From positions 2,334 to 66,333 of the forward strand of contig DATKPK010000189.1 in assembly GCA_035524095.1 (NCBI GenBank): a stretch of 64,000 nt of DNA, read 5' to 3'. This stretch comes from Candidatus Binataceae bacterium. GTDB lineage: Bacteria; Desulfobacterota; Binatia; Binatales; Binataceae. The notes beneath the pieces are model-generated. The model did no database searches. It was not told where the DNA came from and saw only the letters and a program-made list of their open reading frames with translations. Shown in pieces: positions 3,560-56,617 of this stretch. The position numbers and the translations under genes were made by a program. The first letter of the stretch is position 1; each line of letters starts with the position of its first letter.

Positions 3560-3795
3560 CTTAAATCTAGCAAAGCGCGGGCAGGGGATTAAGTAGAGGC
3601 TGTGCTTGCACGGGCGCGCGGATGCGAGTCTGCGAGCCTTTTGTCCAACAATCCGAAATGCCCACTCATAGCAGTGCCGATCAGCATTGCCTTGCCGGAA
3701 GGGTGGTTAGGCGCTACAACCAAGGCAAATCGTCGGCGACAAAGATGACTTGCGCGGCGCGCTCAGGTGGGTGGGCTGCGGCCGAGAGGAGAGCC

Positions 3796-4995
3796 ATGGA
3801 AAAAGCACTGGCGGGTGTGAAGATTCTAGATTTGACCCAATTTGAAGCCGGCACGTCCTGCACTGAGATGCTGGCGTGGCTCGGCGCGGACGTGATCAAA
3901 GTCGAGTCGCCGAAGATGGGCGAGCAGGGACGCTGGATGCTGACGGAACAGCCAGGCGTCGACTCGCACTACTTCATGTTGCTCAATGCGAACAAGCGGA
4001 GTATCACGCTCAACCTCAAGTCCGAGCGCGGCAAGGAAATCTTTATCCAGCTGATCAAGCAGGTCGATATCCTGTCGGAAAACTACTCGCTTGGGACGCT
4101 CGAAGGGCTCGGACTCGGCTATGACAAGCTGCGCGAGATTAATCCGAAATTGATCTATTTGACGATCAAGGGCTTCGGAACGTTTGGTCCATACAGCAAG
4201 TACAAAAGCTTCGATATGATCGCGCAGGCGGCGGGCGGCGCGATGTCGCTGACGGGGTTCCCTGGGTCGCCACCGCTCAAGCCGGGTCCGACGATTGGGG
4301 ATACCGGCACGGGAATCCATGCCGCGTGCGGGGTACTGGCGGCGTATATCCAGCGGCAGGCGACCGGCAAGGGGCAGAAGGTCGAAGTCGCGATGCAGGA
4401 AGCAATCTTCAATTTCGTGCGCGTGCCAATGATGGAGACCTACCTCACGAAGCAGCCGACGCCGCGGCGCGGGAATCGGCTGGGCGCGGGAGTGATCGGC
4501 GATATTTTCAAATGCGCGCCTGGTGGCGACAACGACTACGTCTATATGCTGTGCACCACACCCGAGATGTGGAACGCGATCTGGAACACGGTGGGCAGGC
4601 CGGATGTGATCAATGATCCGCGCTACAGCGACCGCAAGGAACGGGCGAAAAATATCGACGAGTTGCTCGCGATAATCGAAGCGTGGACCGGGCAGCGCAG
4701 CAAGCATGAAGTGATGAAGTTAATGGGCGAGGCGGGGGTACCGTGCGGCGCGATCCTCGATAGCGTCGAGCTGCTCAACGATCCGCATATGCGCGAGCGC
4801 GGCATGGTGGTGACGGTGGACCATCCGGCGCGCGGCAAGTTCACCATGCCTGGCTGTCCGATACGACTGGAAGATTCACCGGTCGATGTGAAAGCGGCGC
4901 CATTGCTGGGGCAGCACAACAATGAGATCTATGGCCAGCTGCTTGGCATGACGGCAGGCGATTTGGAACAGCTGAAAGAGCAGGGTGTGGTTTAA
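3796..4995 (+). CDS. family III CoA-transferase (CaiB/BaiF; formyl-CoA transferase-like)
   Basis: GVKILDLTQFEAGTSCTEMLAWLGADVIKVESP N-terminus. The C-terminal APLLGQHNNEIY...LKEQGVV resembles the Frc C-terminus. ATG at 3796 is preceded by GAGAGGAGAG; the track ORF extends to 3622 but that extension looks non-coding. Confidence 0.85.
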   Translation: MEKALAGVKILDLTQFEAGTSCTEMLAWLGADVIKVESPKMGEQGRWMLTEQPGVDSHYFMLLNANKRSITLNLKSERGKEIFIQLIKQVDILSENYSLGTLEGLGLGYDKLREINPKLIYLTIKGFGTFGPYSKYKSFDMIAQAAGGAMSLTGFPGSPPLKPGPTIGDTGTGIHAACGVLAAYIQRQATGKGQKVEVAMQEAIFNFVRVPMMETYLTKQPTPRRGNRLGAGVIGDIFKCAPGGDNDYVYMLCTTPEMWNAIWNTVGRPDVINDPRYSDRKERAKNIDELLAIIEAWTGQRSKHEVMKLMGEAGVPCGAILDSVELLNDPHMRERGMVVTVDHPARGKFTMPGCPIRLEDSPVDVKAAPLLGQHNNEIYGQLLGMTAGDLEQLKEQGVV

Positions 4996-5037
4996 GCAGA
5001 GGTTGCCATTGCGGGCGCAGGGTTTAAGTAAGAAGCG

Positions 5038-6621
5038 ATGGCGGCGCGCGACATTCTGGACTCAGTCGAATTCCTGAAGCGGTCGGGCGAGGCGGAATTG
5101 CTTCGCTTCGTGCGCGGCCATCGCGGAACAGTCTACGCCGAGATGCGTTTTGAGGCGGTGTTCCATCGATCAGCTGCGGCCAATGATGGTGAGCCGCGCG
5201 ACAGTACGGAGGCTGAGACAGCGGCGCTTGGATTGGCGGTCCATTATGGCGAGCGCGGGGGCGTGATAGGACGCGGGCTGACGGGCGTCGAAGTAGGACG
5301 GTTGGCGCTCAACCGAACGAAGCTCATCGCGGCGTTACGGCAAGCCCTTGAAGAGGCGCTGGTGCGGGCGCGATACGATGCGAAGCACAAACTCGCATTG
5401 TTGAAGGAACTTGGCGACGCGGCTTCGTCGCTGACGACCGGGGCGGCGTACGAGCCGTCGACGGCACGTGACACGCTTGAGGCGGTTTACCGACGGGATC
5501 CACGCGGACTTCAGCCGATGGAGTTGCGCGATATCTGTTGCGAAGCGTCGAAGGCAATCAGTGGGCTCGGCAGTGAAATTGCCTTCAACGTCGTAGCGGC
5601 GACAAGCGAGTTGCGTCACGAACTATTTGTAAATTCTGCAGGTGCACTGATCGGTCAGGCGTTCGCGTTTGCGCAGGGCGATTGTTACGTAGTCGCCCAA
5701 ACCGAACATGGCCATCAAGAAACCTACGACACGATCGGGCAGCAGCGCGGCTTCGAATGCCTCGCCGAAGGTTATCGATCGGAACTGATGCCGAATCCAG
5801 ACCTGCAAACCTTCGCACTTGAGTTGGCGAAGGAAGCGCGTGAGCTTGCAGCCTCACCGGCACTCAAGCCGACCGATCACGAAGTCGTGGTGGTGACGGA
5901 TCCGCATTTCAATGGACTGGTGTCGCATGAAATCGTGGGTCATCCGTGCGAAGCCGATCGCGCTCTCAAGATGGAAGCGGCCTATGCGGGTCGGAGCTGG
6001 CTGTTGCGATCACTGGCGGAGAATGAGATTGGGCAGAGGATCGGATCGGAGCTGTTATCGGCGTGCTCGGACCCGTCGCTCGACGGTTATGGCTATTACC
6101 GCTACGACCATGAAGGGACTGAGGGCCGGCGCGTTCAGCATATCGAAAATGGAATCTTTCGCGGCTTTATAAATTCGCGCGCTACGGCTGCGGCACTTGG
6201 AGTTGAGCCGAACGGGTCGGCGCGTGCGAGTGAGGCGTGGCATACACCGCTAATCCGCATGTCGAATACGTTTTTCATGCCGGGAGTGAGTGACCCGCAA
6301 AAGATTATCGGAGAGGTTGAGCACGGCTATTACATCTGCGGCAACCTGATACCGTCGATCGCGGAGTCGCGCGAGAATTTTCGTATATCGGCGCGCAAAG
6401 TCTACGAGATCAATCACGGACAGCTCGGGCAGCTCTATCGGTCGGGCAGCGTAATCGCGGATTCGAAGAGTTTTTTCATGCATGTGGACGCGGTTGGTAA
6501 TGACCTGCGGCTGATCGCAATTCCGAATTGCGGCAAGGGCCAGCCGATGCAAGCTAAGCGGATGTCGAACGGCGGACCGACGCTGCGGTCGCGGGCGCGG
6601 CTCGGCGGCGGCCAAGCCTGA
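5038..6621 (+). CDS. tldD: TldD-like metalloprotease (TldD/PmbA family)
   Basis: 527 aa. HExxxH zinc motif HEIVGH as in TldD. C-terminal GGPTLRS-type TldD/PmbA family ending. Stop overlaps the next start (TGATG). Confidence 0.8.
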   Translation: MAARDILDSVEFLKRSGEAELLRFVRGHRGTVYAEMRFEAVFHRSAAANDGEPRDSTEAETAALGLAVHYGERGGVIGRGLTGVEVGRLALNRTKLIAALRQALEEALVRARYDAKHKLALLKELGDAASSLTTGAAYEPSTARDTLEAVYRRDPRGLQPMELRDICCEASKAISGLGSEIAFNVVAATSELRHELFVNSAGALIGQAFAFAQGDCYVVAQTEHGHQETYDTIGQQRGFECLAEGYRSELMPNPDLQTFALELAKEARELAASPALKPTDHEVVVVTDPHFNGLVSHEIVGHPCEADRALKMEAAYAGRSWLLRSLAENEIGQRIGSELLSACSDPSLDGYGYYRYDHEGTEGRRVQHIENGIFRGFINSRATAAALGVEPNGSARASEAWHTPLIRMSNTFFMPGVSDPQKIIGEVEHGYYICGNLIPSIAESRENFRISARKVYEINHGQLGQLYRSGSVIADSKSFFMHVDAVGNDLRLIAIPNCGKGQPMQAKRMSNGGPTLRSRARLGGGQA

Positions 6622-8153
6622 TGCTGCCGCGGGCTGAACTCAAGAATTTTGTACGCGAGGCGCGAGTACTGATTGCGCGGGAACGCGACCTCAGCGCTTT
6701 CGAAATTTACGCGTCCGCCAGCGAGGATCGCGTCGCGCGGATAAACTACACGTCTGACATTCCGTCGCGCGGGGTTGAAGAGTTCAAGTCACTGAATGCT
6801 GAGGGCTTTGCGCTTCGGATCGTAATGAAGCGTGATGCGCACGAGACGGGGACGGCGGCGATCGCGGGTGACCTGGGTCTCGAAGCGGTACGCGATGCAT
6901 TGAAGCGTGCGCGCAATGCAGTAGTGGTTGATCCGCACTTCAATGGTTTGCCGGCGGAGCCATCCAAGCTCCGAGCGGGAGAAGCGGCGAGTGCGAATGA
7001 TTTGATGCGGGCGAACGATGGTTTGCTAGCGTCGGCGGCATGGCAAGTGATCGGCGGAGCAATTAAGACTTTCAGAACCAAGGGGCCAAGCGGACTCGAC
7101 CGGCCTGGACTGATTGTCGGCGGAGATCTTTCCATAATCCGAGATCGGATCGCAGTAACGAATTCAAACTATCGCGATATCAGAACGGATGAGAATGCGC
7201 GCTTCGCCTCATCCATTACCGTGTTGGGCGAGGCGCTTGACGCTAAAGGAACGGCTAGTGCGGTCGGCGGATCGGTTGCTGAGGTAACGCGGTCGGCGGC
7301 GCGGCTCGGGCGTCAGGCGGTGTTGAAGGCGCTCGCACTGCAACACGGAGAGCGTCCGCCCCCGGGGCCATATCGGGTGGTTCTCGGAGCGCAACCGCTG
7401 GCTGAGATCGTCAACTACATGGTGCTTCCGTCGCTGACGACGGGAGCGTTTCACGCATCGAACTCGGCTTATCATGGACGTTTCGGGATGCGCGTGATGG
7501 ATAAACGGATCAGCCTAATTGACGATCCGCTGACGACTGGCGGCCCGGTGAAGCGGCGGATTACGTGCGAAGGATTGCCAACCGCAAAGACCGATTTGAT
7601 CAAATCAGGTGAACTGGTCGGGCTGCTATCGAACTTTTACGACGCTAGGCGGCTGATCAACGATCGGCATCGCGCGGAAAAGCTCGGCCCCGCGGGGGAT
7701 AGAGTGACTATGTTTCCTGTATGCAGCGGATATCGGCTGGGTGACGGAGCGGCGCGGCGCTTTGATGCACATCCGGGGGCGAGCGGCACTAACGTGATAA
7801 TGCGCGCGCGCGATGGTATCAGCGACGAGGAGTTGATCGAGCAAGCGGGCGAGGGAATTTACGTCGGCCGCGTATGGTACACCTATCCAATCAACGGCCA
7901 GCGAAACGGTGATTTCACCTGCACGATCAGCGGCGATTCGTACGTGATTCGCGGCGGGAAACTCGTGAAACCGTTGGCGCCCAACTGTTTGCGCATTAAC
8001 GCGAATATCGAAGATGTGTTCACGCATCCAGTTGCGGTGGGGCGGCGCGCCCAGGCAGCGTCGGTATGGGGATCGCCGGAGGCGTATTTCATGCCTGCGC
8101 TGCTAGCGGACGGAATCACGCTCGCGGCGGTTGGCGCAGCAGATTCGGATTGA
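6621..8153 (+). CDS. PmbA/TldE-like protein (TldD/PmbA family, no HExxxH)
   Basis: 510 aa with family-like blocks (GIYVGRVWYTYPIN, GDFTCTISGDSYVIRGGKL) but no HExxxH. This matches the non-catalytic partner of a TldD/TldE heterodimer. Translationally coupled to the upstream TldD. Confidence 0.75.
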   Translation: MLPRAELKNFVREARVLIARERDLSAFEIYASASEDRVARINYTSDIPSRGVEEFKSLNAEGFALRIVMKRDAHETGTAAIAGDLGLEAVRDALKRARNAVVVDPHFNGLPAEPSKLRAGEAASANDLMRANDGLLASAAWQVIGGAIKTFRTKGPSGLDRPGLIVGGDLSIIRDRIAVTNSNYRDIRTDENARFASSITVLGEALDAKGTASAVGGSVAEVTRSAARLGRQAVLKALALQHGERPPPGPYRVVLGAQPLAEIVNYMVLPSLTTGAFHASNSAYHGRFGMRVMDKRISLIDDPLTTGGPVKRRITCEGLPTAKTDLIKSGELVGLLSNFYDARRLINDRHRAEKLGPAGDRVTMFPVCSGYRLGDGAARRFDAHPGASGTNVIMRARDGISDEELIEQAGEGIYVGRVWYTYPINGQRNGDFTCTISGDSYVIRGGKLVKPLAPNCLRINANIEDVFTHPVAVGRRAQAASVWGSPEAYFMPALLADGITLAAVGAADSD

Positions 8154-8156
8154 GCG

Positions 8157-9212
8157 TTGCCGTCGGGTCCACGCAAATCAGCTTCGGTTGCGAAAGCTCT
8201 CTCGCCGGATTCACCAATCGCGCGGATGACGGCGCGCGGAATCGTCGTCGCTGCGAACCCAGAGGATTGGCGGCGCATCCGTACGTCCTTCAAGCTCGAA
8301 AACCATCTGCGGATACCGGGATTTATTGAACCTGAACTGCTCGAAGTGATGCGCAAATACCTGCGGCGGGCGCGTTTCGAGGAGAGCGAATACGGTACGG
8401 TTGGGCGCGATCTGGCGCTGTGGGACAGTCCGGTGGCGGGCGCACTCCATCTGCTGATGAACGATCCAGCGTTGCTCGATTTCGCACGGCGAATCAGCGG
8501 ATGCGGACCGATCGGGAGCTTTACCGGCCGGCTATACCGGATGGTCACGACGCCCGGGATGGACTTCGATTGGCATAGCGATTTGAAGGAAGGCGATTTA
8601 CGAGTCGGGTTGGCGATGACGGTCAATCTCGGAACCAGGCCATATCATGGCGGGATGCTGGAGATGAAGCGCGTCGATGAGGACGCCATCACCGAGATTC
8701 CGAACGTTGGGCCGGGCGATGCGATCATCTTTCGCCTCGCGCGGAATTTACGTCATCGTGTGACGCCGGTCGAAGGGAAGGTGCCTAAGACGGCGTTTAC
8801 CGGATGGTTCATGCTGGCGCCGAATTTCGCTCAGCTCCGCCGTGAATGGCTGGCTGGGCAATATGAGGTGAATGGAGCTGTCCCACGCCGAAGGCGCAAG
8901 CCGGTGATGCCGTCGCCTACGGATGCTTTCTCGATCTCACCGACGGTGGTGACGCTCGGGACGAGCGATGAGACGATTATCGCGAGCATCGCCACAGGGC
9001 GGTTCCATGGGTTGAACGAGACAGCGGTGCGAATGTGGGAGTTGATGGGGCGGGGGCAATCGCTGCATCGTTCCGCGCTAGCGCTGGCGCGGGAATACGG
9101 AGTGGGCGTGGCGGTAGTCGAGCGTGACCTAACCGAGCTGGCCGCGAACCTGGCGGCGCGTCAATTGATCACGCTCGGAATCGGAAACGAGAAGCCCGCT
9201 CACAACTGTTAG
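8157..9212 (+). CDS. 2OG-Fe(II) oxygenase fused to a C-terminal PqqD-like (RRE) domain
   Basis: HxD...H facial triad candidates DWHSD and LRHRVTPV in a P4H-like core. The C-terminal ~85 aa (GRFHGLNETAVRMWELMGRGQSLHRSALALAREYGVGVAVVERDLTELAANLAARQLI) match the PqqD pattern. TTG start 3 nt after the PmbA stop; alternative ATG at 8226. Confidence 0.75.
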   Translation: MPSGPRKSASVAKALSPDSPIARMTARGIVVAANPEDWRRIRTSFKLENHLRIPGFIEPELLEVMRKYLRRARFEESEYGTVGRDLALWDSPVAGALHLLMNDPALLDFARRISGCGPIGSFTGRLYRMVTTPGMDFDWHSDLKEGDLRVGLAMTVNLGTRPYHGGMLEMKRVDEDAITEIPNVGPGDAIIFRLARNLRHRVTPVEGKVPKTAFTGWFMLAPNFAQLRREWLAGQYEVNGAVPRRRRKPVMPSPTDAFSISPTVVTLGTSDETIIASIATGRFHGLNETAVRMWELMGRGQSLHRSALALAREYGVGVAVVERDLTELAANLAARQLITLGIGNEKPAHNC

Positions 9213-9673
9213 TGGACGAGGTGATCGTCGCGGTAGGTTTCCTGTTTGCTCGTGTAGCCAGTGGGATCCCAGCGGGTCCATACGCCTTCGCGCTTGCCCA
9301 TGCGATACTCGCCCTCGATTGACTTGACGCCGTTGAAATACCAACTGGTGTGGAGTCCATCTTGGAGACCATTGTGGAAATGGTCAACGGCTGAGCGTTG
9401 GCCGTTGGCGTACCAGGTGGTCCATTCCCCTTCCTGAACGCCATCGCGGTAGCTGCCTTGGATTAGCTTGTCGTTGCCTTCGCCGTAAACGATGAAAGGG
9501 CCCTCCTTGACTGGCTTGCCATTGACGATTTTCTGACACCAGACTTCTTCACCCTTAGGTGGTGGAGCGCCCATCAGGGTGTCGCCGGGCGGACAGGTGA
9601 AGGTGGCCGTGTGATGGCAGGCGGCGAGACTCAGCGTCGCCAAAATGATACTGGCGAAGAACGGAGACCGCAT
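9209..9673 (-). CDS. MORN-variant (YwqK-like) repeat lipoprotein
   Basis: Lipobox in the signal peptide MRSPFFASIILATLSLAAC. Repeated G-x-W-x-x-W/Y-x-N-G units (GEWTTWYANGQ, GLHTSWYFNGV, GVWTRWDPTGY). Start chosen at ATG 9673; the track ORF runs to 9733. Confidence 0.7.
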   Translation of the reverse strand: MRSPFFASIILATLSLAACHHTATFTCPPGDTLMGAPPPKGEEVWCQKIVNGKPVKEGPFIVYGEGNDKLIQGSYRDGVQEGEWTTWYANGQRSAVDHFHNGLQDGLHTSWYFNGVKSIEGEYRMGKREGVWTRWDPTGYTSKQETYRDDHLVH

Positions 9674-9765
9674 CAGCGAATTGGAAATCGAAGCGGGCGG
9701 TACGCGCCAATCACGCGTTACTGCCCGCTCCATTGAGAGATCAGCCCCGAAGGGCCGACAGTTGC

Positions 9766-11457
9766 CTAGTTTGCGCCGGTCGAACCGAGCAGGTTGCCGC
9801 CCAACGTCGGGTGGCCGACCGTCTTGTCGCCGATGATGTTGACCATCGCGGGCTTGCCGGACTTAAAGGCGCGTTCAAGCGCGGGAACGATTTCGTCAGG
9901 ATCGGTAACGTTCTCGCCATGACAGCCCATCTCGGCAAAGGCCCGATCGTAACGAATGTCCTGCAGCATGTTGAACGGCTCAGTGCGATCTTTGAGCATC
10001 GGCATCGACTCGAAACTTGGACCCCACGAGCTGTTGTTGTAGAGCACACAGACGATCGGCAGTTTGTAGCGCGCGGCAGTTTCCATATCGAAACCGCCGA
10101 TGCCGAGCCCGCCGTCGCCCATAATCAGCGCGACCTGTGAGCCGGGACGTGCGACCTGCACACCGATGCCCATTCCGAAGCCGTGGCCCACTGGGGCGAG
10201 CGGTCCCGCGTCGATGACCTGGCCGGGGAAGCGGGCGGTGAAGCCCTGGCTCATCCAACCCGACATAGTGAAGCTGTCGATAACGACCGTGGCGTTCTTA
10301 TCGAGCACGGTGACGAGGTCCTTGGTCAGGCGCGCGGGATGAATGGGCTTGTTGGTGTGGAACTTCTTTTCGTTCTCGCCGACGACGCGGTCGAAATTGG
10401 CGCGTACCTCGCCCAATTCCTTGACCCATCCAGAGGAGCGATTCTTCGAGAAGTCGAGCTTCAACTCCTTGATACGGTTGATCATCTGGCGCAGCACCAG
10501 CTTCGGATCACCGACCATCGGAACTTCAGCCGGCACCTGCCATCCGATGCGCGATGGCGTCGGATCAACCTGGATATACTTGGCCTTGTCGTTCCATGTC
10601 GGTGGGCGGCCGAAATGCTCGCCGCTCCAGAAGCGAAAGCCGAGGGTCAGAACCACGTCGGCGCGTCCGGTGAAGGGTTTTTTGAAGGCGCCGCGAATTG
10701 CCAGCGGATGCTCTTCGGAAACTGAGCCTTGGCCGGCGCGGCGGGCATAAACCGGAATCGAGGTAAGCTCGACGAACTCGCGCAATTCGGGCCCAGCCTG
10801 CGACCAGAAGAGGCCGTCACCGCCCGCGATCAAGGGACGTTCGGCGGCGTGCAGTAATTCTATCGCGCGATCAATCTTGGCCGGGTCGCCAGCGGAACGG
10901 ACATCGTCGGGCGTAAAACGCATCCCGCCGCCTTTTTGACGGGCGTCGTCGTCCTTGGCGTAGAGAATATTCTGGGGGATCTCGACCAGGGCGACACCCT
11001 GCGGCGGCGCGAGCGCTTCGCGATAGGCCAGGCGCATATCGAATTCAATCGTGCTCCAATCCGTGACGCGCTTGGTGTACTTGGCGAAGCTGCGCAGCAT
11101 GTCCGAGCCATAGGCTTCCTGGAAGGAGCCTTGATGGTCCTCGGTGTTGGGATGCTGGCCGGAGACACAGACGACGGCGCTGTTGGTCATCGCGGCGAGA
11201 CAGAGGCCGGTCATCGCGTTGGTCAGGCCGCATCCAGCGGTAACCATGCACAATCCGGCTTCGCCGGTCATGCGCGCATAGGCATCAGCGGCATAGGCGG
11301 TGGCCTGCTCATGGCGCATATGGATCAACTTGATCTCGTGGTTGCGCAACTGGGCCAGGATTGGAAAAAGGTGACCACCATTGATTGCGAAACAATAGCG
11401 CGAACGGTTTTCGCGCATTATGCGCGCGACCAGTTCGCCCCCGTCAGCTTTGGCCAT
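9766..11457 (-). CDS. thiamine-pyrophosphate-dependent enzyme (acetolactate synthase / oxalyl-CoA decarboxylase superfamily)
   Basis: 564 aa from ATG 11457, which is preceded by AAGGAGGA. N-terminal Pyr domain (HEQATAYAADAYARMTG...TAGCGLTNA). TPP-binding GDG...NN motif (MGDGGLGIGGFDMETAARYKLPIVCVLYNN). Confidence 0.85.
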   Translation of the reverse strand: MAKADGGELVARIMRENRSRYCFAINGGHLFPILAQLRNHEIKLIHMRHEQATAYAADAYARMTGEAGLCMVTAGCGLTNAMTGLCLAAMTNSAVVCVSGQHPNTEDHQGSFQEAYGSDMLRSFAKYTKRVTDWSTIEFDMRLAYREALAPPQGVALVEIPQNILYAKDDDARQKGGGMRFTPDDVRSAGDPAKIDRAIELLHAAERPLIAGGDGLFWSQAGPELREFVELTSIPVYARRAGQGSVSEEHPLAIRGAFKKPFTGRADVVLTLGFRFWSGEHFGRPPTWNDKAKYIQVDPTPSRIGWQVPAEVPMVGDPKLVLRQMINRIKELKLDFSKNRSSGWVKELGEVRANFDRVVGENEKKFHTNKPIHPARLTKDLVTVLDKNATVVIDSFTMSGWMSQGFTARFPGQVIDAGPLAPVGHGFGMGIGVQVARPGSQVALIMGDGGLGIGGFDMETAARYKLPIVCVLYNNSSWGPSFESMPMLKDRTEPFNMLQDIRYDRAFAEMGCHGENVTDPDEIVPALERAFKSGKPAMVNIIGDKTVGHPTLGGNLLGSTGAN

Positions 11458-11728
11458 CTGCAGATCCTCCTTGATTAGTTCCGGCTTGGTTAGTCCCGGG
11501 CCGGCGGGCTGCGGACCGTGTAGCGGCTGAAAGACCACTATGGCCGGAGCGGGCTGGTGCACACGGGCTGGTAACTATCATCGAAACGAATCCTTGCACA
11601 TTTTAGGGGTGAGCGAAAACCGCAGGCGCCGAAGAAAGCCGCTGGAGATATTGATAGCGTCCGCAAAGTTGATCGAGAGCGCAAAGACTGTAAATGTTGG
11701 GGACCGTTAGTGGTTTGGGGAGGTTCGG

Positions 11729-13120
11729 TTGCGCGGACAACTTGCAAAGCGAATTTTGACGGTCGTGATCGGATTGGCTGGTGCGATATTTACCGGACTT
11801 GCGGTTTCGAATGCGTATGGCGCTTCGACGATTCCGCTGTCGGCTCCCGAGCCTTCAACTTCACCTGCCGTTTCGAATGCTGGTTCGGCAACACCTGCAA
11901 GGCCCGTCACAGCTGCGAATGCCGCACCATTTGACTGGATGCAGCCAAAGACCTGGCCGTCACCATTCAACCCGTACTTGTGGCCATTCAATCTCTTCCC
12001 CGTGCCTGAAGTAGCGACCAATCCCAATGGCGGAGTGACCTATGGCATCCTGCTGGCCTTTCTATTCAAGGATCAGGATGGTCACATCAACAGTATCTTT
12101 GCGCCGGATGTTAACGAGAACAGCGAACTTGGACCGGGCGGATCGTTGAAGTATTTCGCCTACCCGTCAGAGGATACGCAATGGTCAGCGATTGGCGCAG
12201 CGCAGGAAAACATCGCGCGAACGGTCGATTTGAACTACGAAACCGGACGGACGCATGAAAATTGGTGGTCGGCAGAGGGCGAGTTGTTCTTTGAAAGGGA
12301 TCCAACTGAGCGATTCTACGGTATAGGCAACACAACCGACGAGGGCAACGAGACTAATTATACGACCGAGCAACTCTATTTCAGGGCCTTGCTGGGTTGG
12401 AATATAACTCATGACCTGCAGCTAGCCTTCGTGACCAAGCCGCGCTACGTGCGGATTCAGGAAGGAGCATTCACCACGCTGCCGCAGATTTTCACGCTAT
12501 TCCCTAACGTTAAGGGGATTAATGGCGGGAGCGAATTCTACAATGAGTTACGTCTAACCTATGACACGCGGGATTCGATTGAGATGCCCCGCAGTGGTGG
12601 CTTGGGTGTGCTTTACGGCGGCAACGCTGACCGGGCTTTGGCGAGCTCGGTTTCGTATAATCGAATCGGTGGCGAACTCGCCCGCTACTATTCGTTTGGC
12701 AAACGCTTTACGCTGGCGATGCACGGCTATATGCAATACATGCCCGCGGGTGACGAAACGCCGTTTTGGTCGATGGGGTGGTTAGGCGGTGAACCCAGTG
12801 AGTTGTATTACCGAGAAACGCTGCGGGGATTTGGTGCGGGCCGCTTTATCGACAACAATATGACGGACCTCAACATTGAGTTGCGCACACGGGTACTCGA
12901 AGCATCGGTGATGGGCAATAAGGGAGTCCTCGAGGTGGCGCCGTTCCTTGACGCCGGGCAGGTCTTTCACAACGTATCGTACAATCCGGTGGCGGCGCTC
13001 CATCCCGCTGGTGGAATTGGGCTGCGGGCCTTGGCTGAGCCGTTCGTCGTCGCGTACCTGGATGTCGGATGGGGCGGTGAGGGCACGGCGATCTTTACCG
13101 GGATCGATTATCCATTCTAA
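11729..13120 (+). CDS. Omp85/BamA-family outer-membrane beta-barrel protein without recognisable POTRA domains
   Basis: Signal peptide (ILTVVIGLAGAIFTGLAVSNAYG). Loop-6 type motif LRGFGAGRF. Alternating beta-strand pattern and a C-terminal aromatic residue (GIDYPF). TTG start preceded by GGGGAGG. Confidence 0.7.
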   Translation: MRGQLAKRILTVVIGLAGAIFTGLAVSNAYGASTIPLSAPEPSTSPAVSNAGSATPARPVTAANAAPFDWMQPKTWPSPFNPYLWPFNLFPVPEVATNPNGGVTYGILLAFLFKDQDGHINSIFAPDVNENSELGPGGSLKYFAYPSEDTQWSAIGAAQENIARTVDLNYETGRTHENWWSAEGELFFERDPTERFYGIGNTTDEGNETNYTTEQLYFRALLGWNITHDLQLAFVTKPRYVRIQEGAFTTLPQIFTLFPNVKGINGGSEFYNELRLTYDTRDSIEMPRSGGLGVLYGGNADRALASSVSYNRIGGELARYYSFGKRFTLAMHGYMQYMPAGDETPFWSMGWLGGEPSELYYRETLRGFGAGRFIDNNMTDLNIELRTRVLEASVMGNKGVLEVAPFLDAGQVFHNVSYNPVAALHPAGGIGLRALAEPFVVAYLDVGWGGEGTAIFTGIDYPF

Positions 13121-13176
13121 GGCTGTTTCCTACGGCCAGCGCATTAGTCAAGGGGCAGCTAGACAGGGGAGATTTG

Positions 13177-14073
13177 CTAGACGTTTCGGATGAAGGGAGT
13201 CAGCTTCAGGTGTGCGATCAAATCGCGCATCATCGAGGCTGAAAGATCAGCGGCAGTTTGCTTGGCCTGCGGACCCATCCGGGTCAAGCGAAGAAGGTTG
13301 CGCCGCGACGAGAGTGCGCTTTTAAGCGCCTCCGCGCCCATGGGATCGAAGCGGCAACAGGCGGCGGCGCCATGCTGTTCGAGGACGCCGGAAATCGCTT
13401 CCTGAGAGGCGCGGGCGAACATCTCGGCTTCGGCCCGATCGATCCGCTGCGCGCCACCAGTCGCGCGAATCACGCGATGCCATTGTTTGATACGGCGGAG
13501 GCCGCCTTCAAAGATGATGCGATGAGTAGAGAAACCGCCGAGCGGGCGGTCGATTGAACGCTTCAGCATCGCATCCAACGCGCTGAAATCGATTGCGAGA
13601 AGCTTGAGCAGCAACTCACGGTAATCGCGTTCGTAGAGACTGTCGAAACAAGCCTCGTTGTAGATGTGGCTGGGCAGGCCCTTGTCGAAATGGCCAATGA
13701 AACGGACGGGCAAAAAGAAATTGTGTGCGACGACGTCGGCAGCGAGATGGGCTAGGTAACCGAGCACGAAAGCTTGTTCGCGCTCGCTACGCGCGGATTG
13801 CATAAGGCCGAGACCGGTCGTCCAATTGTGGGAATGGCGCCTGAGACGGCTTTGGAAACGCCGTCCCTGCACAATATCGGGGGCGAGGCCGCCATAGAGA
13901 AAGACCTCGGGGAGGTTGACCAGGGCGGCTTGAAGCGGGGTCGAGGGGGTGATAACCGTCGCGAGTACTTGGACGCCCAAGGCGATATGGGTGACAGGGC
14001 CCCATGCGAAGGCCGGCGCAGGAGCGAGCACGACCCACGCGATCACCAGGCCGAATAGAGTCCCTAAGAACAT
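13177..14073 (-). CDS. zinc-dependent phospholipase C family protein
   Basis: Signal-like N-terminus followed by AFAWGPVTHIALG, the W-x-x-x-T-H start typical of the Zn-dependent PLC family, then HLAADVVAHN. ATG at 14073 chosen; the ORF extends to TTG 14112. Confidence 0.65.
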   Translation of the reverse strand: MFLGTLFGLVIAWVVLAPAPAFAWGPVTHIALGVQVLATVITPSTPLQAALVNLPEVFLYGGLAPDIVQGRRFQSRLRRHSHNWTTGLGLMQSARSEREQAFVLGYLAHLAADVVAHNFFLPVRFIGHFDKGLPSHIYNEACFDSLYERDYRELLLKLLAIDFSALDAMLKRSIDRPLGGFSTHRIIFEGGLRRIKQWHRVIRATGGAQRIDRAEAEMFARASQEAISGVLEQHGAAACCRFDPMGAEALKSALSSRRNLLRLTRMGPQAKQTAADLSASMMRDLIAHLKLTPFIRNV

Positions 14074-15140: not shown

Positions 15141-16526
15141 ATGCGGCGCGGGACGCATCGAATGAGAGTCACCAGACGCGTGAGCGTGCGCAATATTGGG
15201 AGCCTGGCCGGGCTCATCATTGCGATAGGGCTAGCGCTCACCAGCCGCGCGAGATTGTATGCCGAGCCGTCACCGGCCATGAGCCAGCATCCGATGGTCG
15301 AAGTTATCGACCTCGATGGGGTGATCAATCCGGCGGCGGCGGACTTTATCAATGATGCGATCGGACGAGCGGTCACGAACGGCGCCAGCGCGCTCGTCAT
15401 CGAGCTAGATACGCCGGGCGGGCTGTTGACTTCTGCGCGGACGATCGTCAAAGCACTGCTCAATGCGCCGGTCCCGATAATCGTCTACGTCGCGCCAGCT
15501 GGGGCCAGTGCGGTGTCGGCGGGAACGTTCGTTACCGAGGCGGCCAATATTGCAGCGATGGCCCCGGGTACGACGATCGGCGCGGCTCATCCGGTGGACG
15601 TCAATGGTGGCGATGTCCAAGGTGAGATGGGGACGAAGGTCGAGAATTTCACCGCCTCGTGGGCAAAAGCGATCGCGGAGCAGCGTGGGCGTAATCAGGA
15701 TTGGGCCGAACAGGCGGTGCGGAACAGCGCTTCGATCAGCTCGAGCGAGGCGCTCAAGCTCCATGTAGTCGATATCATCGCACCTGACCTTTCCAGCCTG
15801 CTGCAGCAGGCATCAGGGCGGATCGTGACGGTCGCAGGTGGACGTGCGATCAGGCTCGAACTGGCTGACGCTGAGATCGAACGGATCGAGATGCGGTTCG
15901 GCGAGAGCGTACTTAACCGGCTGGCCGATCCGAACCTGATGTACTTGCTGATGATCGCCGGGATCATTGGGATTTATCTGGAGTTCGCACATCCGGGAGC
16001 GTACCTGCCGGGGGTTGCGGGTGGAATCTGCTTGTTACTAGCGCTGGCGTCTTTCCAGGTTATTCCGATCAATCTCGCGGGGCTGGCACTGATTCTTTTC
16101 GGGGCCGTCATGATTCTGACCGAACTGTTTATCACCAGTTACGGCGTGCTCGGCTTGGGCGGGATGTTCGCGTTCATTCTCGGGTCACTATTCCTAGTGG
16201 ATACTTCGGAAACCAATCTGGCTGTGAATCGAGGTTTGATCGCGGGGGCAGGCGTGGCCTTTGGCGCGATCGTGCTGGCGATCGGTTATGTAGTAGTGCG
16301 CGAAAGGCGCGAGCGGCCGACGACCGGCAGCGAAGGGCTGATCGGCGAGATAGGTGTGATACGCATGCCGATAACACCCGGCGTCCCAGGACGGATTTTT
16401 GTGCATGGCGAGACCTGGCGGGCGCGCAGTGGAGAGCCAATGGACGCGGGGACTCAAGCGCGCGTGATGGCGGTGCGCGGCCTAGAAGTCGAAGTCGAAC
16501 CGGTTGCAGGCAAAGCCTCGAACTAG
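15141..16526 (+). CDS. NfeD-family membrane-bound serine protease
   Basis: ClpP-like periplasmic domain, central multi-TM region and a C-terminal OB-like NfeD tail (GRIFVHGETWRARS). Lies immediately upstream of an SPFH gene, the classic pairing. Confidence 0.85.
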   Translation: MRRGTHRMRVTRRVSVRNIGSLAGLIIAIGLALTSRARLYAEPSPAMSQHPMVEVIDLDGVINPAAADFINDAIGRAVTNGASALVIELDTPGGLLTSARTIVKALLNAPVPIIVYVAPAGASAVSAGTFVTEAANIAAMAPGTTIGAAHPVDVNGGDVQGEMGTKVENFTASWAKAIAEQRGRNQDWAEQAVRNSASISSSEALKLHVVDIIAPDLSSLLQQASGRIVTVAGGRAIRLELADAEIERIEMRFGESVLNRLADPNLMYLLMIAGIIGIYLEFAHPGAYLPGVAGGICLLLALASFQVIPINLAGLALILFGAVMILTELFITSYGVLGLGGMFAFILGSLFLVDTSETNLAVNRGLIAGAGVAFGAIVLAIGYVVVRERRERPTTGSEGLIGEIGVIRMPITPGVPGRIFVHGETWRARSGEPMDAGTQARVMAVRGLEVEVEPVAGKASN

Positions 16527-33452: not shown

Positions 33453-35816
33453 CTACGGGGAAATGAGGGCGGAGCGGCCTTTGCTCCCCATCCGGACACC
33501 GATCTTTTTCAGAAAGCCGGCGGGCAGTTCGGCTCCGATTAGGGCGAAGATCAATTCGTTGGCGAGTTCGATCGGAGTACTGAGGAGCGGACCAGTGGCG
33601 CGCGCACCTGAAGCCAGTTGAACTGGCGACAGAACCACTTTGTCTGGGCGAATCGCTGTCAGGGCCGTCGCCGGATACATGGTTATACGATGAGCTCGCT
33701 GCAACTCGACGATCTTTTCAACGTTTTCCCGCGAGACGTTGGTGAGCACGGGCGAGCGGAACGAATAAGTCACGCGATTGCCGAGCCGTGGATCGGCGAG
33801 AGCTTGGGCGACTTCGGCGCCAGCGTTGCCGCCACCGACGACGAGAATTTCGCGGCCGTGGTACTCGTCGGCGTCGATCAGCATGTAATGAACGCGGCCG
33901 GGTTCGTCGCCTGGGATGTTCAGATGGCGCGGGTTGCCGCGCACACCAATCGCGAGCACCACGCAGCGGGCCTTGAAGACGTCGCGGCGCGCGGTGACCA
34001 GGCGAAAGAGATCAGGTTCGCGAGCGATGTCGGCCACCTCCTGGCGGTCGTTGATAGTGAGCTTGAGCTGGGCGATGATCCGTTCCCATTCGCGGATAAG
34101 TTCTTCGCGAGAATTGTCACCTTCGAGAAAGAAGGTGCCGTATTCCTCGATATCAATCGGCGTGGCCTGCACGAATTTCGCGCGCGGATAAGCGCGAAGG
34201 GTGCTAGCGGGAGTCATTTTCTCAAGAGTGACGTACTTAAGCCCCATCACTTGAGCGGTAGCGGTGGCGCCGAGGCCTGCGGGACCACAGCCGACAATCG
34301 CGACGTCATAAACATCGGGCTGGACGGGGAGGCGGAGCTGTTTCAGTTCGGCGGCGATCGCTTCAATCACCTGACGTCCCGAGCGCATCGCGAGGTTGAT
34401 TGATGCGGTGCCGGCCGCCTCGCCGATGAGATAAAGACGCCTGACACTGGTCTGGTAGGTGTCGTCAATTAGCGGGACTTCATGGGCAGGCTGTGGCGCG
34501 ACTTCGATCATCACTTCGCCAGCCGCGACTTTAGACGGTACCAGCATCGGAAGGACGAGAAAGCCGAGGCTCGCGGCGAACACGCCGATGGTCCCGAGCC
34601 ACCAGGGTGACATCCGAACAGGCGAAAAATGGAGTCTGCTATTGGAACTGAGTGAGGGCCAGTAGAGGGTCAAATGGAGGTTGCGCGGCTGATTCGGCGG
34701 AAACTTTGGGGCTGGAACGTGGAAGTCGTTGGCGAGGACAACGCCGTGGTGATGGAAGGGATGGCAATCCCCGCAGGCGACAACGCGATCGTCGCCGGGC
34801 GCGGAAGATATGTCAGTGGCGAGAGCATTGCCTACGGCGAGCCATCCGACGAATGCGTGATCGTCAACTAGTGCGGCGGACGTCAGAACGGCAGACTGAA
34901 TCGCGCCGCGGAACGATGACGAATTGAACAATGCTTGAGTCGAACGGTTCGCCGCTGGCGGCGGACTCTGGTGGGCGTGGCAGGTGAAACATTGCGCGAC
35001 GCTCAGGGAAGCGTCGTCGTCGGGTGCGATGCTAGCTGGGATCGTCGCATGACAAGTAATGCATTGCGACGCGAGATGGCCCGGTGAATGGACGAAGACT
35101 GCGTTAATATGAAAAACACGTGCGGAATAGGGCAGAATAACTGGATCAGTTCCGACCGACGCGGGGAGTTTGAGGAACGAATCCTGCGGCGCGATATGGC
35201 ATCCCGCGCCCGTGCATGAACTCCACCGAAAACTCATCGAGTCCTTCTGTGGCGGCGTCACAGCATTGACGATATGGCACGAGGTGCAGGCAAAGCCTCC
35301 TGGCCGTGCCGGATAATGGCTTTCGATCAGTGCCTTATGCAGCTTGTGATTAAACGGCTCGGTGAAGTTATTGGCGGGAGGATCGGGCCGCGTTACGGAT
35401 GCGGCCACATGTTCGTCGACGGCCCGGATCGAGGGATGATGATGGCACCAGGTGCAGGCGAAGGAGGCCGCGGCTGAGATATCGACGATCCGTCCCTGAT
35501 GTTCGCTGTGGCAGCTAAGGCAGGCGAGGTAGTTATTTTTGTCGAGCATCAATTGTCGGCCAGGCGGGACGGACGTCAGCTCGTCACTCATATCCATTGC
35601 GCCGTGCGGATTGACGTCGCTGATATCGCCGTGACAGACGATGCATCGCTGACTGACAGGGCCGTGCCATGCGCGATGGCATGAGCCACATTCACCTTCG
35701 AGCTGCGCATGGGCTGCGATTACGCGGCCAGGCTGATAACTGGTGCGCGGTGCGAGCATCAATGCCGTGAAGAGGATCGCGGCGACGCCGATTATCCAGC
35801 CAAGCCGCCGCATCAT
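33453..35816 (-). CDS. multiheme cytochrome c (8 CxxCH + 1 CxxxxCH) fused via a TM helix to an FAD/NAD(P)-binding oxidoreductase domain
   Basis: N-terminal signal anchor. CxxCH at residues 43, 58, 99, 121, 177, 252, 276 and 348, plus CTGAGCH at 201. Hydrophobic helix at ~404-426. Then DVAIVGCGPAGLGA and ILVVGGGNAGAEVA dinucleotide folds. The start overlaps the upstream stop (ATGA). Confidence 0.8.
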   Translation of the reverse strand: MMRRLGWIIGVAAILFTALMLAPRTSYQPGRVIAAHAQLEGECGSCHRAWHGPVSQRCIVCHGDISDVNPHGAMDMSDELTSVPPGRQLMLDKNNYLACLSCHSEHQGRIVDISAAASFACTWCHHHPSIRAVDEHVAASVTRPDPPANNFTEPFNHKLHKALIESHYPARPGGFACTSCHIVNAVTPPQKDSMSFRWSSCTGAGCHIAPQDSFLKLPASVGTDPVILPYSARVFHINAVFVHSPGHLASQCITCHATIPASIAPDDDASLSVAQCFTCHAHQSPPPAANRSTQALFNSSSFRGAIQSAVLTSAALVDDHAFVGWLAVGNALATDISSAPGDDRVVACGDCHPFHHHGVVLANDFHVPAPKFPPNQPRNLHLTLYWPSLSSNSRLHFSPVRMSPWWLGTIGVFAASLGFLVLPMLVPSKVAAGEVMIEVAPQPAHEVPLIDDTYQTSVRRLYLIGEAAGTASINLAMRSGRQVIEAIAAELKQLRLPVQPDVYDVAIVGCGPAGLGATATAQVMGLKYVTLEKMTPASTLRAYPRAKFVQATPIDIEEYGTFFLEGDNSREELIREWERIIAQLKLTINDRQEVADIAREPDLFRLVTARRDVFKARCVVLAIGVRGNPRHLNIPGDEPGRVHYMLIDADEYHGREILVVGGGNAGAEVAQALADPRLGNRVTYSFRSPVLTNVSRENVEKIVELQRAHRITMYPATALTAIRPDKVVLSPVQLASGARATGPLLSTPIELANELIFALIGAELPAGFLKKIGVRMGSKGRSALISP

Positions 35817-40187: not shown

Positions 40188-41414
40188 TCAATATGGTGCG
40201 TTGTGCAGCACGCCCTGACTTTCGAGATCGCGGACGCGACCGGTGGAATAACCAAGAAACTTTGTTAGTACCTCTTCGTTGTGCTCACCGAGCATCGGCG
40301 CTTCGAGAGTGAGGCGTTCGGGAAACTCCGAGAAACGCAGCGCGAACCCGGGCACGTCAAAATCGCCGAGGATGCGGTCATGGACGGTGCGAATCGTACC
40401 ACGTCCACGCAGATGGGGATGCTGCCGCGCCTCGGCTACGGAAAGGATCGGTGCACATGGCACGCGATATTCGCGAATCGGCGCCATGACGGCTTCGTCA
40501 TTAGGCTGGGCCTGCAACCACGATTCAATTTCACTGACTAATTCCTTGAGATTCTTTAAACGATCACCGTTGGTGACAAAGCGAGGGTCTTGCGCGAGCT
40601 CCGCCTTGCCCATCGCCTTGCATAGATTCGCGAAATGATGTTGCAAGGCGGCGATGATCACAAAGTCGCGCTTGTTGCCACGAAAGACACCGCATGGAAC
40701 CGCGTACCACGAATGTGCCCCGGAACGAGTCGGATTGATCTTGCCATTACTGAGGCTATTCATCTGCACGCCAGCCTCGTGATAATGAGCGTAAGTATCG
40801 AGTAGCGAAATATCGAGATGCTGACCGCGTCCGGTGCGCTGGCAGTAGAGCAGAGCGGCGCAGATCGCACCCATCGCATGCGCTCCTGTGCTGACGTCGC
40901 CGATCGCGATCATTGGAATCTGCGGCGGACCGTCAGACTCACCGCCCATCGAAGTGATACCGGCGTAGGCCGCGCCGAGATAATCGAAGCCGGGTTCATT
41001 CGCGAGAGGACCGGTTTGGCCGAATGCTGAAATTGAGCACATCACGATTTTCGGATTGATTGCGCTGACGGTTGCGTAATCGAGCCCGAGCCGAGCAATC
41101 ACGCCGGGCGCGTAGTTCTGAACCAGCACATCGATATGCGGTAGCAGTCCCTTGATAATCGCGAGGCCCTCGGGATGTTTCACATCGAGGCAAATATCTC
41201 TCTTGCCGCGATTGTGCTGAACGAAATAACCACTGCGGCCCTTGACCAATACACCACCGAGACGCGCGGGATCGCCGGCGGGCGGAAGCTCAACTTTGAT
41301 AACATCAGCGCCCATTTCCGCGAGCATCAGCGTAGTCGTTGGTCCCGCAACGACCTGGCTGAAATCCAGTACGCGATAGCCGTCGAGCACGTGTTTGAGA
41401 TTGTCCCCAGACAT
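40188..41414 (-). CDS. family III CoA-transferase (CaiB/BaiF)
   Basis: YRVLDFSQVVAGPTTTLMLAEMGADVIKVELP N-terminus and C-terminal PMLGEHNEEVL. ATG at 41414 with GGAGG 8 nt upstream; the track ORF extends to TTG 41441. Confidence 0.88.
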   Translation of the reverse strand: MSGDNLKHVLDGYRVLDFSQVVAGPTTTLMLAEMGADVIKVELPPAGDPARLGGVLVKGRSGYFVQHNRGKRDICLDVKHPEGLAIIKGLLPHIDVLVQNYAPGVIARLGLDYATVSAINPKIVMCSISAFGQTGPLANEPGFDYLGAAYAGITSMGGESDGPPQIPMIAIGDVSTGAHAMGAICAALLYCQRTGRGQHLDISLLDTYAHYHEAGVQMNSLSNGKINPTRSGAHSWYAVPCGVFRGNKRDFVIIAALQHHFANLCKAMGKAELAQDPRFVTNGDRLKNLKELVSEIESWLQAQPNDEAVMAPIREYRVPCAPILSVAEARQHPHLRGRGTIRTVHDRILGDFDVPGFALRFSEFPERLTLEAPMLGEHNEEVLTKFLGYSTGRVRDLESQGVLHNAPY

Positions 41415-41575
41415 GCAATTTGACCTCCATAAAGAGGGCAAGAACTGACGCCCACACGGTCTCTATAGCACTGTCTGCCACGAAGCGGTTGCACCCGTGC
41501 ATGGTTTGCTGAGGGCGGGCGAGAAAAGATCACCCGACGCCCGATTGCGAGCCCTGGGACCGGCGTGCCGGACAG

Positions 41576-42772
41576 TTAGAGGAGGGCGTCGCCGGGGCGG
41601 GGATCGAGGCCCATCAGGACGCGACCAGCAGTCTCGTAGATTTTCGGGGAATTCATCGTGTGCTGATTGATCGTATGGAGATCGCGCAGTGCGCGATCGA
41701 GCGGACCCGACGCATATACGGCCGCGCCACCGTAGGCCTTGTAGAGTAGCTCTACAGCCGACAGGCAGTTTGCGTGTCCCTGCAAAACCGCCAGTCGGTA
41801 ACGCGCGCGCTGTTGAATGGTCAAACGATCACCAGCGACGAGCGTATTCCAGATATCATCGAGACGATCGTAGATGTAGGTGCGGGCGCCTGCGACCAAC
41901 GCTTCAGCCTGTCCGACCGCGGATTGGACGTGCGGCTCATCACAGAGCAAGGTTTTGCGTCCGGTGAGCATCCCGGAGGTTACGAGCTTTTTGCGCGCTA
42001 ATTCCATAAACGAATCGATAGCGGCGCGGGCGATACCAATCGTGATGCCGGGCAACTTGTAACCGAAGAGCATTGGGAAAGCGTAGAGCGGACCGGGGCG
42101 GCGAATCTGTCGGGGCGGAAAATCCGACACGCGCTCGGCGGGAACGAAGACGTCTGACGCCGCGAAATCGTTGCTGCCGCTGCCCCGTAGGCCGGTGGTA
42201 TGCCAAGTGTCGAGGATTTCGCCGGAGCTAATCGGGAGCATGCACATCAGATGCTGCTGACGATCGCGCTCGTCGAGAATAGGATTGCCCGCACTGTCAG
42301 ACAGTGCGCAGGTAAGACCGATCCATTCGCAATGCTGGCAACCGCTGGCGAACGGCCAGCGGCCAGTCACGCGATAGCCGCCATCAACTTTAACAGCGCG
42401 GCCGGTGAAGATGAGGCTTGCGGCGGTGGGCGCGTCGAGGTCCTGATACATTTCGTGCGCGACGTCCTGATCAATGAAGGCGCCGAGGTAGCCGCCGTCG
42501 ATGTTGATCATCGCACACCATCCGACGGAGCCGTCGGCGTAGGCGAGTTCTTCGATCACGCGCACCTGGTCGGGCAAGGAGAGTTCGGGGCCGCCCCAGG
42601 AGCGTGGATGGGCCATGCGAAAGATGCCAGCTTCCTTCATCGCATGAACGATCGCGGGTGTCAGGCGGCGGCCTTGTTCGATCGCGTTCGCAGCCGCGCG
42701 GATCTGTGGCGCCAATGCTTTGGCAGCGACCAGAGTGCGTGCCGCCTCGTCCTCGCTACTGTCGATGCTCAT
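41576..42772 (-). CDS. acyl-CoA dehydrogenase family protein (possibly flavin-dependent monooxygenase type)
   Basis: 398 aa with ACAD-like N, middle and C domain pattern (WCAMINIDG, HTTGLRGSGSNDF). Divergent from canonical ACADs. Confidence 0.7.
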   Translation of the reverse strand: MSIDSSEDEAARTLVAAKALAPQIRAAANAIEQGRRLTPAIVHAMKEAGIFRMAHPRSWGGPELSLPDQVRVIEELAYADGSVGWCAMINIDGGYLGAFIDQDVAHEMYQDLDAPTAASLIFTGRAVKVDGGYRVTGRWPFASGCQHCEWIGLTCALSDSAGNPILDERDRQQHLMCMLPISSGEILDTWHTTGLRGSGSNDFAASDVFVPAERVSDFPPRQIRRPGPLYAFPMLFGYKLPGITIGIARAAIDSFMELARKKLVTSGMLTGRKTLLCDEPHVQSAVGQAEALVAGARTYIYDRLDDIWNTLVAGDRLTIQQRARYRLAVLQGHANCLSAVELLYKAYGGAAVYASGPLDRALRDLHTINQHTMNSPKIYETAGRVLMGLDPRPGDALL

Positions 42773-55138: not shown

Positions 55139-55161
55139 GCCAGACTAGTGTTCGAAGGCGG

Positions 55162-56604: not shown

Positions 56605-56617
56605 TGCCGCTTAACTC

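Follow-up and report, generated by a model that had tools for sequence, protein, structure and literature searches.

Here, we analysed a 64-kb stretch of DNA from Candidatus Binataceae (the window; positions are those of this stretch), in which a gene for a 2-oxoglutarate (2OG)-Fe(II) oxygenase fused to a PqqD-type recognition element (RRE) for peptides made by the ribosome and modified after translation (RiPPs) follows the genes for a TldD/PmbA protease pair. We consider it rather probable that this fusion is a stand-alone RRE-guided peptide hydroxylase of lasso-tailoring descent, which sits as a passenger beside a housekeeping TldD/PmbA pair and has a predicted substrate encoded elsewhere. 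An earlier note on this DNA had taken the three genes for a candidate peptide-modification locus. The part of that claim that holds is that an RRE-bearing 2OG oxygenase points to peptide modification; the part that does not is that TldD/PmbA and the fusion form a functional team.

The fusion and its two domains are arranged as follows:

8226-9212, + strand: oxygenase-RRE fusion (PF13640 and PF05402); the mechanical open reading frame (ORF) begins at TTG 8157
8541-8810, + strand: 2OG-FeII_Oxy_3 core, with H117-x-D119 from nt 8574 and H177 at nt 8754-8756
8922-9170, + strand: PqqD/RRE domain (Pfam PqqD, E 5.9e-10), several beta strands and then three helices

The ORF matched 2OG-FeII_Oxy_3 (PF13640) over aa 129-218 with E 2.4e-8 (35.3 bits, cut-off 27), and PqqD (PF05402) over aa 272-338 along the full-length profile (1-67) with 39.8 bits (cut-off 23.4). 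Both the N-terminal HxD...H oxygenase and the C-terminal PqqD/RRE domain of the earlier note are thereby confirmed. With residues numbered on the 328-aa protein that starts at ATG 8226, none of 20 homologues departs from H117, D119, H177 and R178, and K188 shows at least 90% conservation among them, i.e. the HxD...H triad and a basic 2OG-binding residue are kept.

An AlphaFold2 model of the fusion has two domains (predicted local distance difference test (pLDDT) 82, predicted template modelling score 0.81), the N-terminal one of which is a jelly-roll. The best Foldseek matches of this domain were Tpa1, OGFOD1, the Pseudomonas putida prolyl 4-hydroxylase (P4H) and PHD2 (E 5e-9 to 2e-8, probability 1.00), and the N-terminal part models as a prolyl-4-hydroxylase-like Fe(II)/2OG oxygenase with a double-stranded beta-helix. 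In the RRE of the model, DSSP assigned strands over 233-263, followed by helices over 265-275, 280-291 and 295-311, and this block has a pLDDT of 80-90. Moreover, the lasso leader-binding protein TbiB1 (5v1u) was the sole PDB sequence match to the fusion (E 2.5e-8, aa 233-315, 83 residues), and the best NCBIfam matches of the fusion were lasso PqqD chaperones. Finally, across six lineages of the sub-clade that includes the window, the ratio of non-synonymous to synonymous substitution rates (dN/dS) of the fusion was 0.11-0.28, as opposed to 0.07-0.11 for TldD/PmbA and ~0.03 for a thiamine-diphosphate enzyme encoded nearby; these figures are rough because dS is near saturation, and they indicate that the fusion is under purifying selection.

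In an exhaustive profile search, 529 representatives were recovered at E <= 1e-30; among the best 150, ~60 are full-length fusions and the remainder are oxygenase-only. In clusters at 50% identity, at least several dozen are fused and hundreds are oxygenase-only. Oxygenase-only homologues (33-40% identity) from Pyrinomonadaceae and Blastocatellia lie beside genes for an Asn-synthase-type lasso cyclase, a Transglut_core3 B2 protease, a discrete PqqD protein and an HPr-kinase-like protein, and the B2 protease in these clusters scored 69.5 bits against NF033537 (cut-off 33). The small ORFs of the same clusters carry a YxxPxLxxxG...T leader; they scored 18.9-20.5 bits against lasso_leader_L3, and three of the four reached the cut-off of 19. 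A profile made from five such precursors recovered four more, all adjoining cyclase or kinase genes, so that nine precursors in related loci served as the positive control.

A lasso cyclase gene adjoins relatives in L023-L034. In the Omnitrophota locus L030, two tandem fusions with the architecture of the window gene (PF13640, then PF05402) lie immediately upstream of the lasso cyclase. This locus (9986-13673; metagenome-assembled genome (MAG) JAHFFN010000001.1) also encodes PMT_2 and GT2 glycosyltransferases, a B2 protease, a discrete PqqD protein and, at 15169-15324, a candidate precursor; it is a heavily tailored, uncharacterised lasso cluster.

Similarly, in Binatia (L015-L017), a fusion lies a few kb from genes for a lasso B2 protease, an NTP_transf_5 protein, PhyH oxygenases, a kinase-like protein, a precursor and a discrete PqqD protein. 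The leader in L016/L017 is exemplified by KYVPPSLVDYGNVTKIT. In L015 (7105-13381) and L017 (9965-15846), from MAGs of Candidatus Binatus and an uncultured delta proteobacterium, a polytopic membrane protein of ~560-580 aa lies between two paralogous oxygenase-PqqD fusions; the NTP_transf_5 nucleotidyltransferase and the lasso B2 protease follow, with no cyclase within the fetched stretch. The lasso-like cluster of L016 (13984-20573) holds two PhyH-type dioxygenases, a protein-arginine-methyltransferase-like gene, an HPr-kinase-like gene, a B2 protease and a discrete PqqD protein; its precursor ends in ...TKITSAPKVITGPDAPGSVKKGSCL, and the cyclase is presumably past the fetched end.

The second line of evidence concerns the genes beside the fusion. 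Four co-directional ORFs occupy 3622-9212 (+), and the genes surrounding the fusion are:

3796-4995, + strand: family III CoA-transferase, formyl-CoA-transferase-like (CoA_transf_3, E 7e-116, aa 63-433 of a 457-aa ORF)
5038-6621, + strand: TldD-like M103 metalloprotease subunit, predicted catalytic (PmbA_TldD_3rd, E 6e-37)
6621-8153, + strand: PmbA/TldE-like subunit, predicted non-catalytic partner (PmbA_TldD_3rd, E 4e-31; no HExxxH)
9209-9733, - strand: MORN-repeat lipoprotein, backbone gene (Pfam MORN_2, E 5.8e-8)
9766-11562, - strand: thiamine-diphosphate enzyme (acetolactate-synthase/oxalyl-CoA-decarboxylase/2-hydroxyacyl-CoA-lyase-like), backbone gene (Pfam TPP_enzyme_N/M/C)

ORF, motif and Pfam checks bore out the description of the protease genes in the earlier note: the TldD-like protein (527 aa) carries HEIVGH (aa 297-302, nt 5926-5943), a motif search found no HExxxH in the PmbA-like protein (510 aa), and the start of the latter gene overlaps the stop of the former in TGATG (6619-6623). 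Both subunits carry the PmbA_TldD C-terminal domain PF19289 above the cut-off (E 6e-37 and 4e-31). E. coli TldD (5nj5) matches the window TldD with E 1.2e-25, and PmbA proteins in the PDB match the PmbA-like protein with E 8e-5 to 3e-4. H297, E298, H302 and C498 of TldD are invariant among 12 orthologues, and a conserved cysteine lies in NCGKGQ near the C terminus; from the E. coli structure, we take the conserved cysteine to be the third metal ligand. Against the NCBIfam TldD equivalogs, the protein scored 116 bits (NF040952, cut-off 635) and 92.7 bits (NF008006, cut-off 513). Because these cut-offs are far from reached, we assign it to a divergent subfamily rather than to the orthologues of E. 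coli TldD. We conclude from the sequences that TldD/PmbA is a predicted heterodimeric M103 metalloprotease, of which TldD would be the catalytic and PmbA the non-catalytic subunit.

A metagenome scan with the TldD alignment gave 80 loci (65-99% identity), the arrangement of which was read by local tblastn. PmbA is paired with TldD in every one of these loci that is long enough to show it, and the common arrangement is MoxR, then CoA-transferase-TldD-PmbA, then MORN-thiamine-diphosphate enzyme. The CoA-transferase is the first gene of this conserved three-gene block; in most of the ~80 Binataceae loci (L036-L114) it lies directly 5' of TldD-PmbA on the same strand, and the thiamine-diphosphate enzyme lies just beyond on the opposite strand. 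We conclude that the CoA-transferase, TldD and PmbA genes form a conserved housekeeping block throughout Candidatus Binataceae. The conserved link of the CoA-transferase with a divergent TldD/E pair hints at a metabolic, not a RiPP, role for the pair.

The oxygenase was found in only one of the 80 loci, L035, which is the window's own sequence (99-100%). Among the assessable metagenomic loci, in which PmbA is complete and the downstream DNA is long enough (n=44), the fusion was absent from all 44. The MORN gene comes straight after PmbA in many fusion-less loci, and its match starts 22-261 nt past the end of the PmbA match in 13 of the 44. Longer PmbA/MORN junctions hold unrelated cargo: a VapBC-like pair, a GNAT acetyltransferase, a zinc-type dehydrogenase (Zn-ADH), an HATPase-like protein or a helix-turn-helix protein. 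Loci with a variable junction include L039, L049-L052, L054, L058, L060, L062 and L036, and the counterpart in the window is 8154-9208. L036, the TldD of which is 87% identical to that of the window, has no fusion, and a luciferase-like gene on the opposite strand follows its PmbA gene. Because of the fusion-less loci and the unrelated cargo, we regard the PmbA/MORN junction as a variable spot and TldD/PmbA as independent of the fusion. Moreover, at E <= 1e-10 the homologues of TldD number >2000 (with >120 clusters at identities of >=66%), as opposed to 43 matches for the fusion with the same kind of query.

We also scanned from the side of the fusion, using one genome per GTDB species (26 loci). 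No TldD/PmbA was found within 10 kb at 12 distinct Binatia fusion loci with 40-46% identity (L010-L020, L022), nor within 10 kb of the fusion on the metagenome contig L003. The fusions with 40-46% identity adjoin a mod-like ABC transporter, lie between prephenate dehydratase and accA/miaA, or adjoin an ABC exporter or an SDR gene. The fusion of L009 (71% identical) nests inside the window sub-clade in a neighbour-joining tree; this locus keeps the MORN and thiamine-diphosphate enzyme genes downstream, but upstream it has an Mla lipid-transport operon, not TldD/PmbA. Fusion homologues with at least 62% identity have in common the order recO, MoxR, CoA-transferase, TldD, PmbA, fusion, MORN lipoprotein, thiamine-diphosphate enzyme and Omp85. 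Because the entire neighbourhood is conserved there, adjacency inside this shallow sub-clade is uninformative on function. In total, the fusion and TldD/PmbA appear to be neighbours by position and not partners in function, and we conclude that the fusion is an accessory gene at the variable PmbA/MORN junction, present in one sub-clade only. The inference of the earlier note that the trio could mature a peptide thus fails, also by a refuting condition that the note itself named: the fusion is syntenic with TldD/PmbA only in that sub-clade, with L009 and L036 as exceptions.

The earlier note also held that the fusion starts 3 nt after the PmbA stop and is translationally coupled to it. The distance is correct for the mechanical ORF from TTG 8157; however, P0001, the 328-aa gene call of the database, begins with ATG 8226, 72 nt past the PmbA stop, and the gaps between PmbA and the fusion are 33-76 nt in homologous loci. 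This start and these gaps make co-transcription with PmbA plausible, whereas translational coupling of the fusion gene is not established. A scan for promoters and terminators returned 0 promoter-like sites and no more terminator-like sites than in shuffled sequences.

Within the window, tblastn and hidden Markov model (HMM) searches found no lasso kinase and no NTP-transferase. The observation in the earlier note that no precursor is visible holds down to an ORF cut-off of 20 aa in the window. By contrast, its expectation of a conserved small peptide gene accompanying the fusion was not borne out in the small-ORF scan of the window, in which none of the 20-60-aa ORFs in 3560-3795, 4996-5037, 8154-8225 and 9674-9765 was conserved specifically in fusion-bearing loci. 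We rejected the small ORF at 9645-9836 as a precursor; it overlaps the antisense of the end of the thiamine-diphosphate enzyme gene and is 'conserved' in fusion-less loci too. Similarly, the conserved small-ORF clusters around the fusion in an all-vs-all comparison (ORFs >=30 aa) were all shadow ORFs over the fusion gene.

As a mechanism for an RRE-guided hydroxylase, we propose that the C-terminal RRE would bind a ribosomal peptide by its leader, most likely a leader of the lasso-type YxxPxLxxxG...T kind, and would present the core peptide to the N-terminal oxygenase, which would hydroxylate a side chain, with proline as the default guess from the fold. The substrate gene would lie outside the window, elsewhere in the genome. 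As a passenger, the fusion probably shares a transcript with TldD/PmbA; any leader could still be trimmed by a generalist TldD/E, although the protease pair would not be the dedicated partner of the fusion.

Several observations weigh against this proposal. Neither a lasso cyclase (Asn-synthetase-like) nor a B2 protease (transglutaminase-like) was found in the 64-kb window by tblastn and HMM searches, and regular-expression and profile searches of the same 64 kb found no YxxPxLxxxG...T leader (best E 1.2, as opposed to 1e-8 to 1e-26 for the controls). The fusion does not reach the NCBIfam lasso-PqqD cut-offs (28.4 bits, cut-off 70), and the target residue of the hydroxylation is a guess from the modelled fold. 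Most Binatia fusions lie amid housekeeping genes, and RiPP genes are absent within 10 kb of them. In several other genomes, the fusion is split, frameshifted or truncated with the PqqD part in another frame (L007/L021, ~8001-9034; L008, 7893-8807; L018, 6778-8211; L022, 9491-10941), which suggests repeated decay of the gene in other Binatia genomes; because distant copies are frameshifted or truncated, the function of the fusion may be dispensable or changing. Finally, in six distinct sequenced loci, including the window, the fusion follows PmbA on one strand after a short gap, and a functional link specific to the sub-clade is therefore conceivable, though less probable.

We weighed these observations against four other explanations. 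One that we regard as unlikely is exaptation, i.e. that the RRE-like domain aims the hydroxylase at a normal cellular protein or a non-RiPP peptide, outside natural-product biosynthesis. PPHD with EF-Tu and Tpa1/OGFOD1 with ribosomal protein uS12 provide precedents, the best structural matches of the fusion are protein prolyl hydroxylases, and both the solitary position of most Binatia copies and the purifying selection on the fusion fit with this explanation. However, the RRE has its closest match in TbiB1, a lasso B1 protein, relatives of the same architecture lie inside lasso biosynthetic gene clusters (BGCs), the frameshifted copies in several genomes speak against a core cellular role, and the distribution is patchy even among close relatives. 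If exaptation did apply, it would amount to RRE-guided protein modification outside natural-product biosynthesis.

It is distinctly unlikely, in our estimate, that the oxygenase with its built-in RRE acts without any RiPP cluster, its leader-binding domain having been recruited to direct it either to a motif in an ordinary cellular protein or to a distant small peptide; still less likely is a variant of this idea in which TldD/PmbA of the sub-clade replaces the lasso B2 protease and a linear hydroxylated peptide results.

That a lost lasso cluster left the fusion behind as a remnant in decay, functionless in this genome, we consider very unlikely. The lack of partner genes in 64 kb, the pseudogenised copies in L007/L021, L008, L018 and L022, and the faster evolution of the fusion relative to its neighbours would be in line with decay; however, the frame is intact, the catalytic residues are invariant, and the dN/dS values of the six lineages, with dS saturated, argue for continued purifying selection.

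Least credible of all, and largely refuted by the co-occurrence data, is a dedicated three-gene RiPP module in which the fusion hydroxylates, TldD/E removes the leader and the precursor is encoded elsewhere: the shared strand, the short gaps, the lack of a terminator-like site between PmbA and the fusion, the retention of the arrangement in the window, L001, L002, L004/L005 and L006, and the maturation of microcin B17, klebsazolicin and a McC analogue by TldD/E as well as the presence of TldD/E-like genes in some pearlin BGCs (PMC10885120) are outweighed by the absence of the fusion from all assessable TldD/PmbA loci, the other cargo of L036, the Mla operon of L009, the fusions beyond the sub-clade that are never near TldD/PmbA, the far greater conservation and spread of TldD/PmbA, the conservation of the whole neighbourhood in the sub-clade, which deprives adjacency of a specific signal, and the lack of a precursor in the window.

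Returning to the backbone, the CoA-transferase scored 442.2 bits against the formyl-CoA-transferase subfamily model NF003809 of NCBIfam (cut-off 442). Its mechanical ORF starts at 3622, homology starts from M59 (~nt 3796), and the gene calls of relatives are 398 aa. Because Pfam and NCBIfam homology begins at approximately residue 59-63 and the relatives have 398 aa, the 58-codon extension (3622-3795) is probably untranslated. The MORN lipoprotein gene is convergent with the fusion gene, the two stops overlap by 4 nt, and it forms the far edge of the variable junction. Every NCBIfam match of the thiamine-diphosphate enzyme was under the cut-off, and this protein is 91-97% identical among relatives. 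The named homologues come from MAGs of Candidatus Binataceae and Binatus.

In the rest of the window, Pfam annotation covered 17448-53836, and 53968-63832 was covered by the lasso-specific searches. The annotated part encodes core metabolism (aconitase, cytochrome bd, acetate kinase, CoA-transferases and acyl-CoA dehydrogenases), and no RiPP genes were found in 17448-53836. It includes, at 33453-35816 (-), a 787-aa protein that is an unusual fusion of multihaem cytochrome c3-type domains and a pyridine-nucleotide-disulfide oxidoreductase domain. At 40188-41441, 41576-42772, 49284-50159 and 52643-53836 lie the genes for another family III CoA-transferase, two acyl-CoA-dehydrogenase-like proteins and a 2OG dioxygenase of the TauD family. 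The window is rich in acyl-CoA metabolism, and other peptide-modification genes are absent.

If the fusion is a stand-alone RRE-guided peptide hydroxylase, it represents an uncharacterised family of single-chain peptide-tailoring enzymes composed of an RRE and a prolyl-hydroxylase-like domain. Those members that lie in lasso clusters, in Acidobacteria and Omnitrophota, suggest a lasso modification undescribed for that oxygenase family, and the orphan Binatia copies raise the question of whether a tailoring enzyme with an RRE can work in trans on a precursor encoded far away or has non-RiPP targets. For genome mining, the locus is a caution: a gene with tight same-strand adjacency to TldD/PmbA in several genomes is here a passenger at the variable junction of a vertically conserved backbone, and not part of a functional module.

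RRE-assisted 2OG hydroxylation of RiPP precursors is already known. RRE fusions to many enzyme classes, including JmjC-type oxygenases, have been catalogued (PMC12710340); text-term searches of this 2025 survey found no PF13640-RRE fusion. The RRE-Finder paper does not mention oxygenases or hydroxylases (PMC7470986). Literature searches returned no report of lasso peptides in Binatia, and no description of a covalent fusion of PF13640 to a B1-type RRE, or of its orphan distribution in Binatia, was found in the searchable literature. The statement in the earlier note that no characterised oxygenase-RRE fusion is teamed with TldD/E still stands.

Among known systems, TldD/E is a broadly distributed generalist protease; its genes usually lie outside BGCs, and it serves other functions in the cell (PMC10885120). 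The window pair is similar to E. coli TldD/TldE (MEROPS M103) in that it has an overlapping stop and start, HExxxH and a conserved Cys in TldD, and a partner from which the motif is absent; moreover, it appears to be housekeeping and is not tied to a particular BGC (PMC10885120). It differs in that its proteins are longer, only the C-terminal domain aligns well, and a family III CoA-transferase gene joins the pair in a conserved operon-like block.

On the oxygenase side, CorC of the corallotide graspetide BGC is likewise a PF13640 protein in a RiPP cluster, and when it was co-expressed with the synthetase and a beta-lactamase, the products fitted an oxygenated precursor (PMC13097080). By contrast with the window fusion, CorC is not described as RRE-fused (PMC13097080), and its context is graspetide rather than lasso-type. 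The C-terminal domain of the fusion shares with TbiB1 and other lasso B1 proteins (5v1u, 5v1v) the RRE layout of strands followed by three helices. However, TbiB1 is a discrete protein of ~90 aa that passes the leader to B2, whereas the window domain is the C terminus of an oxygenase with no B2 or cyclase nearby.

The closest parallel is provided by CanE and CanB1 of Streptomyces canus, which act in canucin biosynthesis. CanE hydroxylates the linear, leader-bearing lasso precursor and is stimulated by the RRE CanB1 (PMC9266682). As in the window gene, an Fe(II)/2OG oxygenase is thus combined with a lasso-type PqqD/RRE module, and relatives of the window gene lie in lasso BGCs. The window gene differs in that oxygenase and RRE form one polypeptide and the gene lies outside a lasso BGC; its oxygenase is a prolyl-hydroxylase-like PF13640 protein, and CanE makes beta-hydroxy-Asp. 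By analogy of function, the fusion would resemble CanE and CanB1 joined in one chain.

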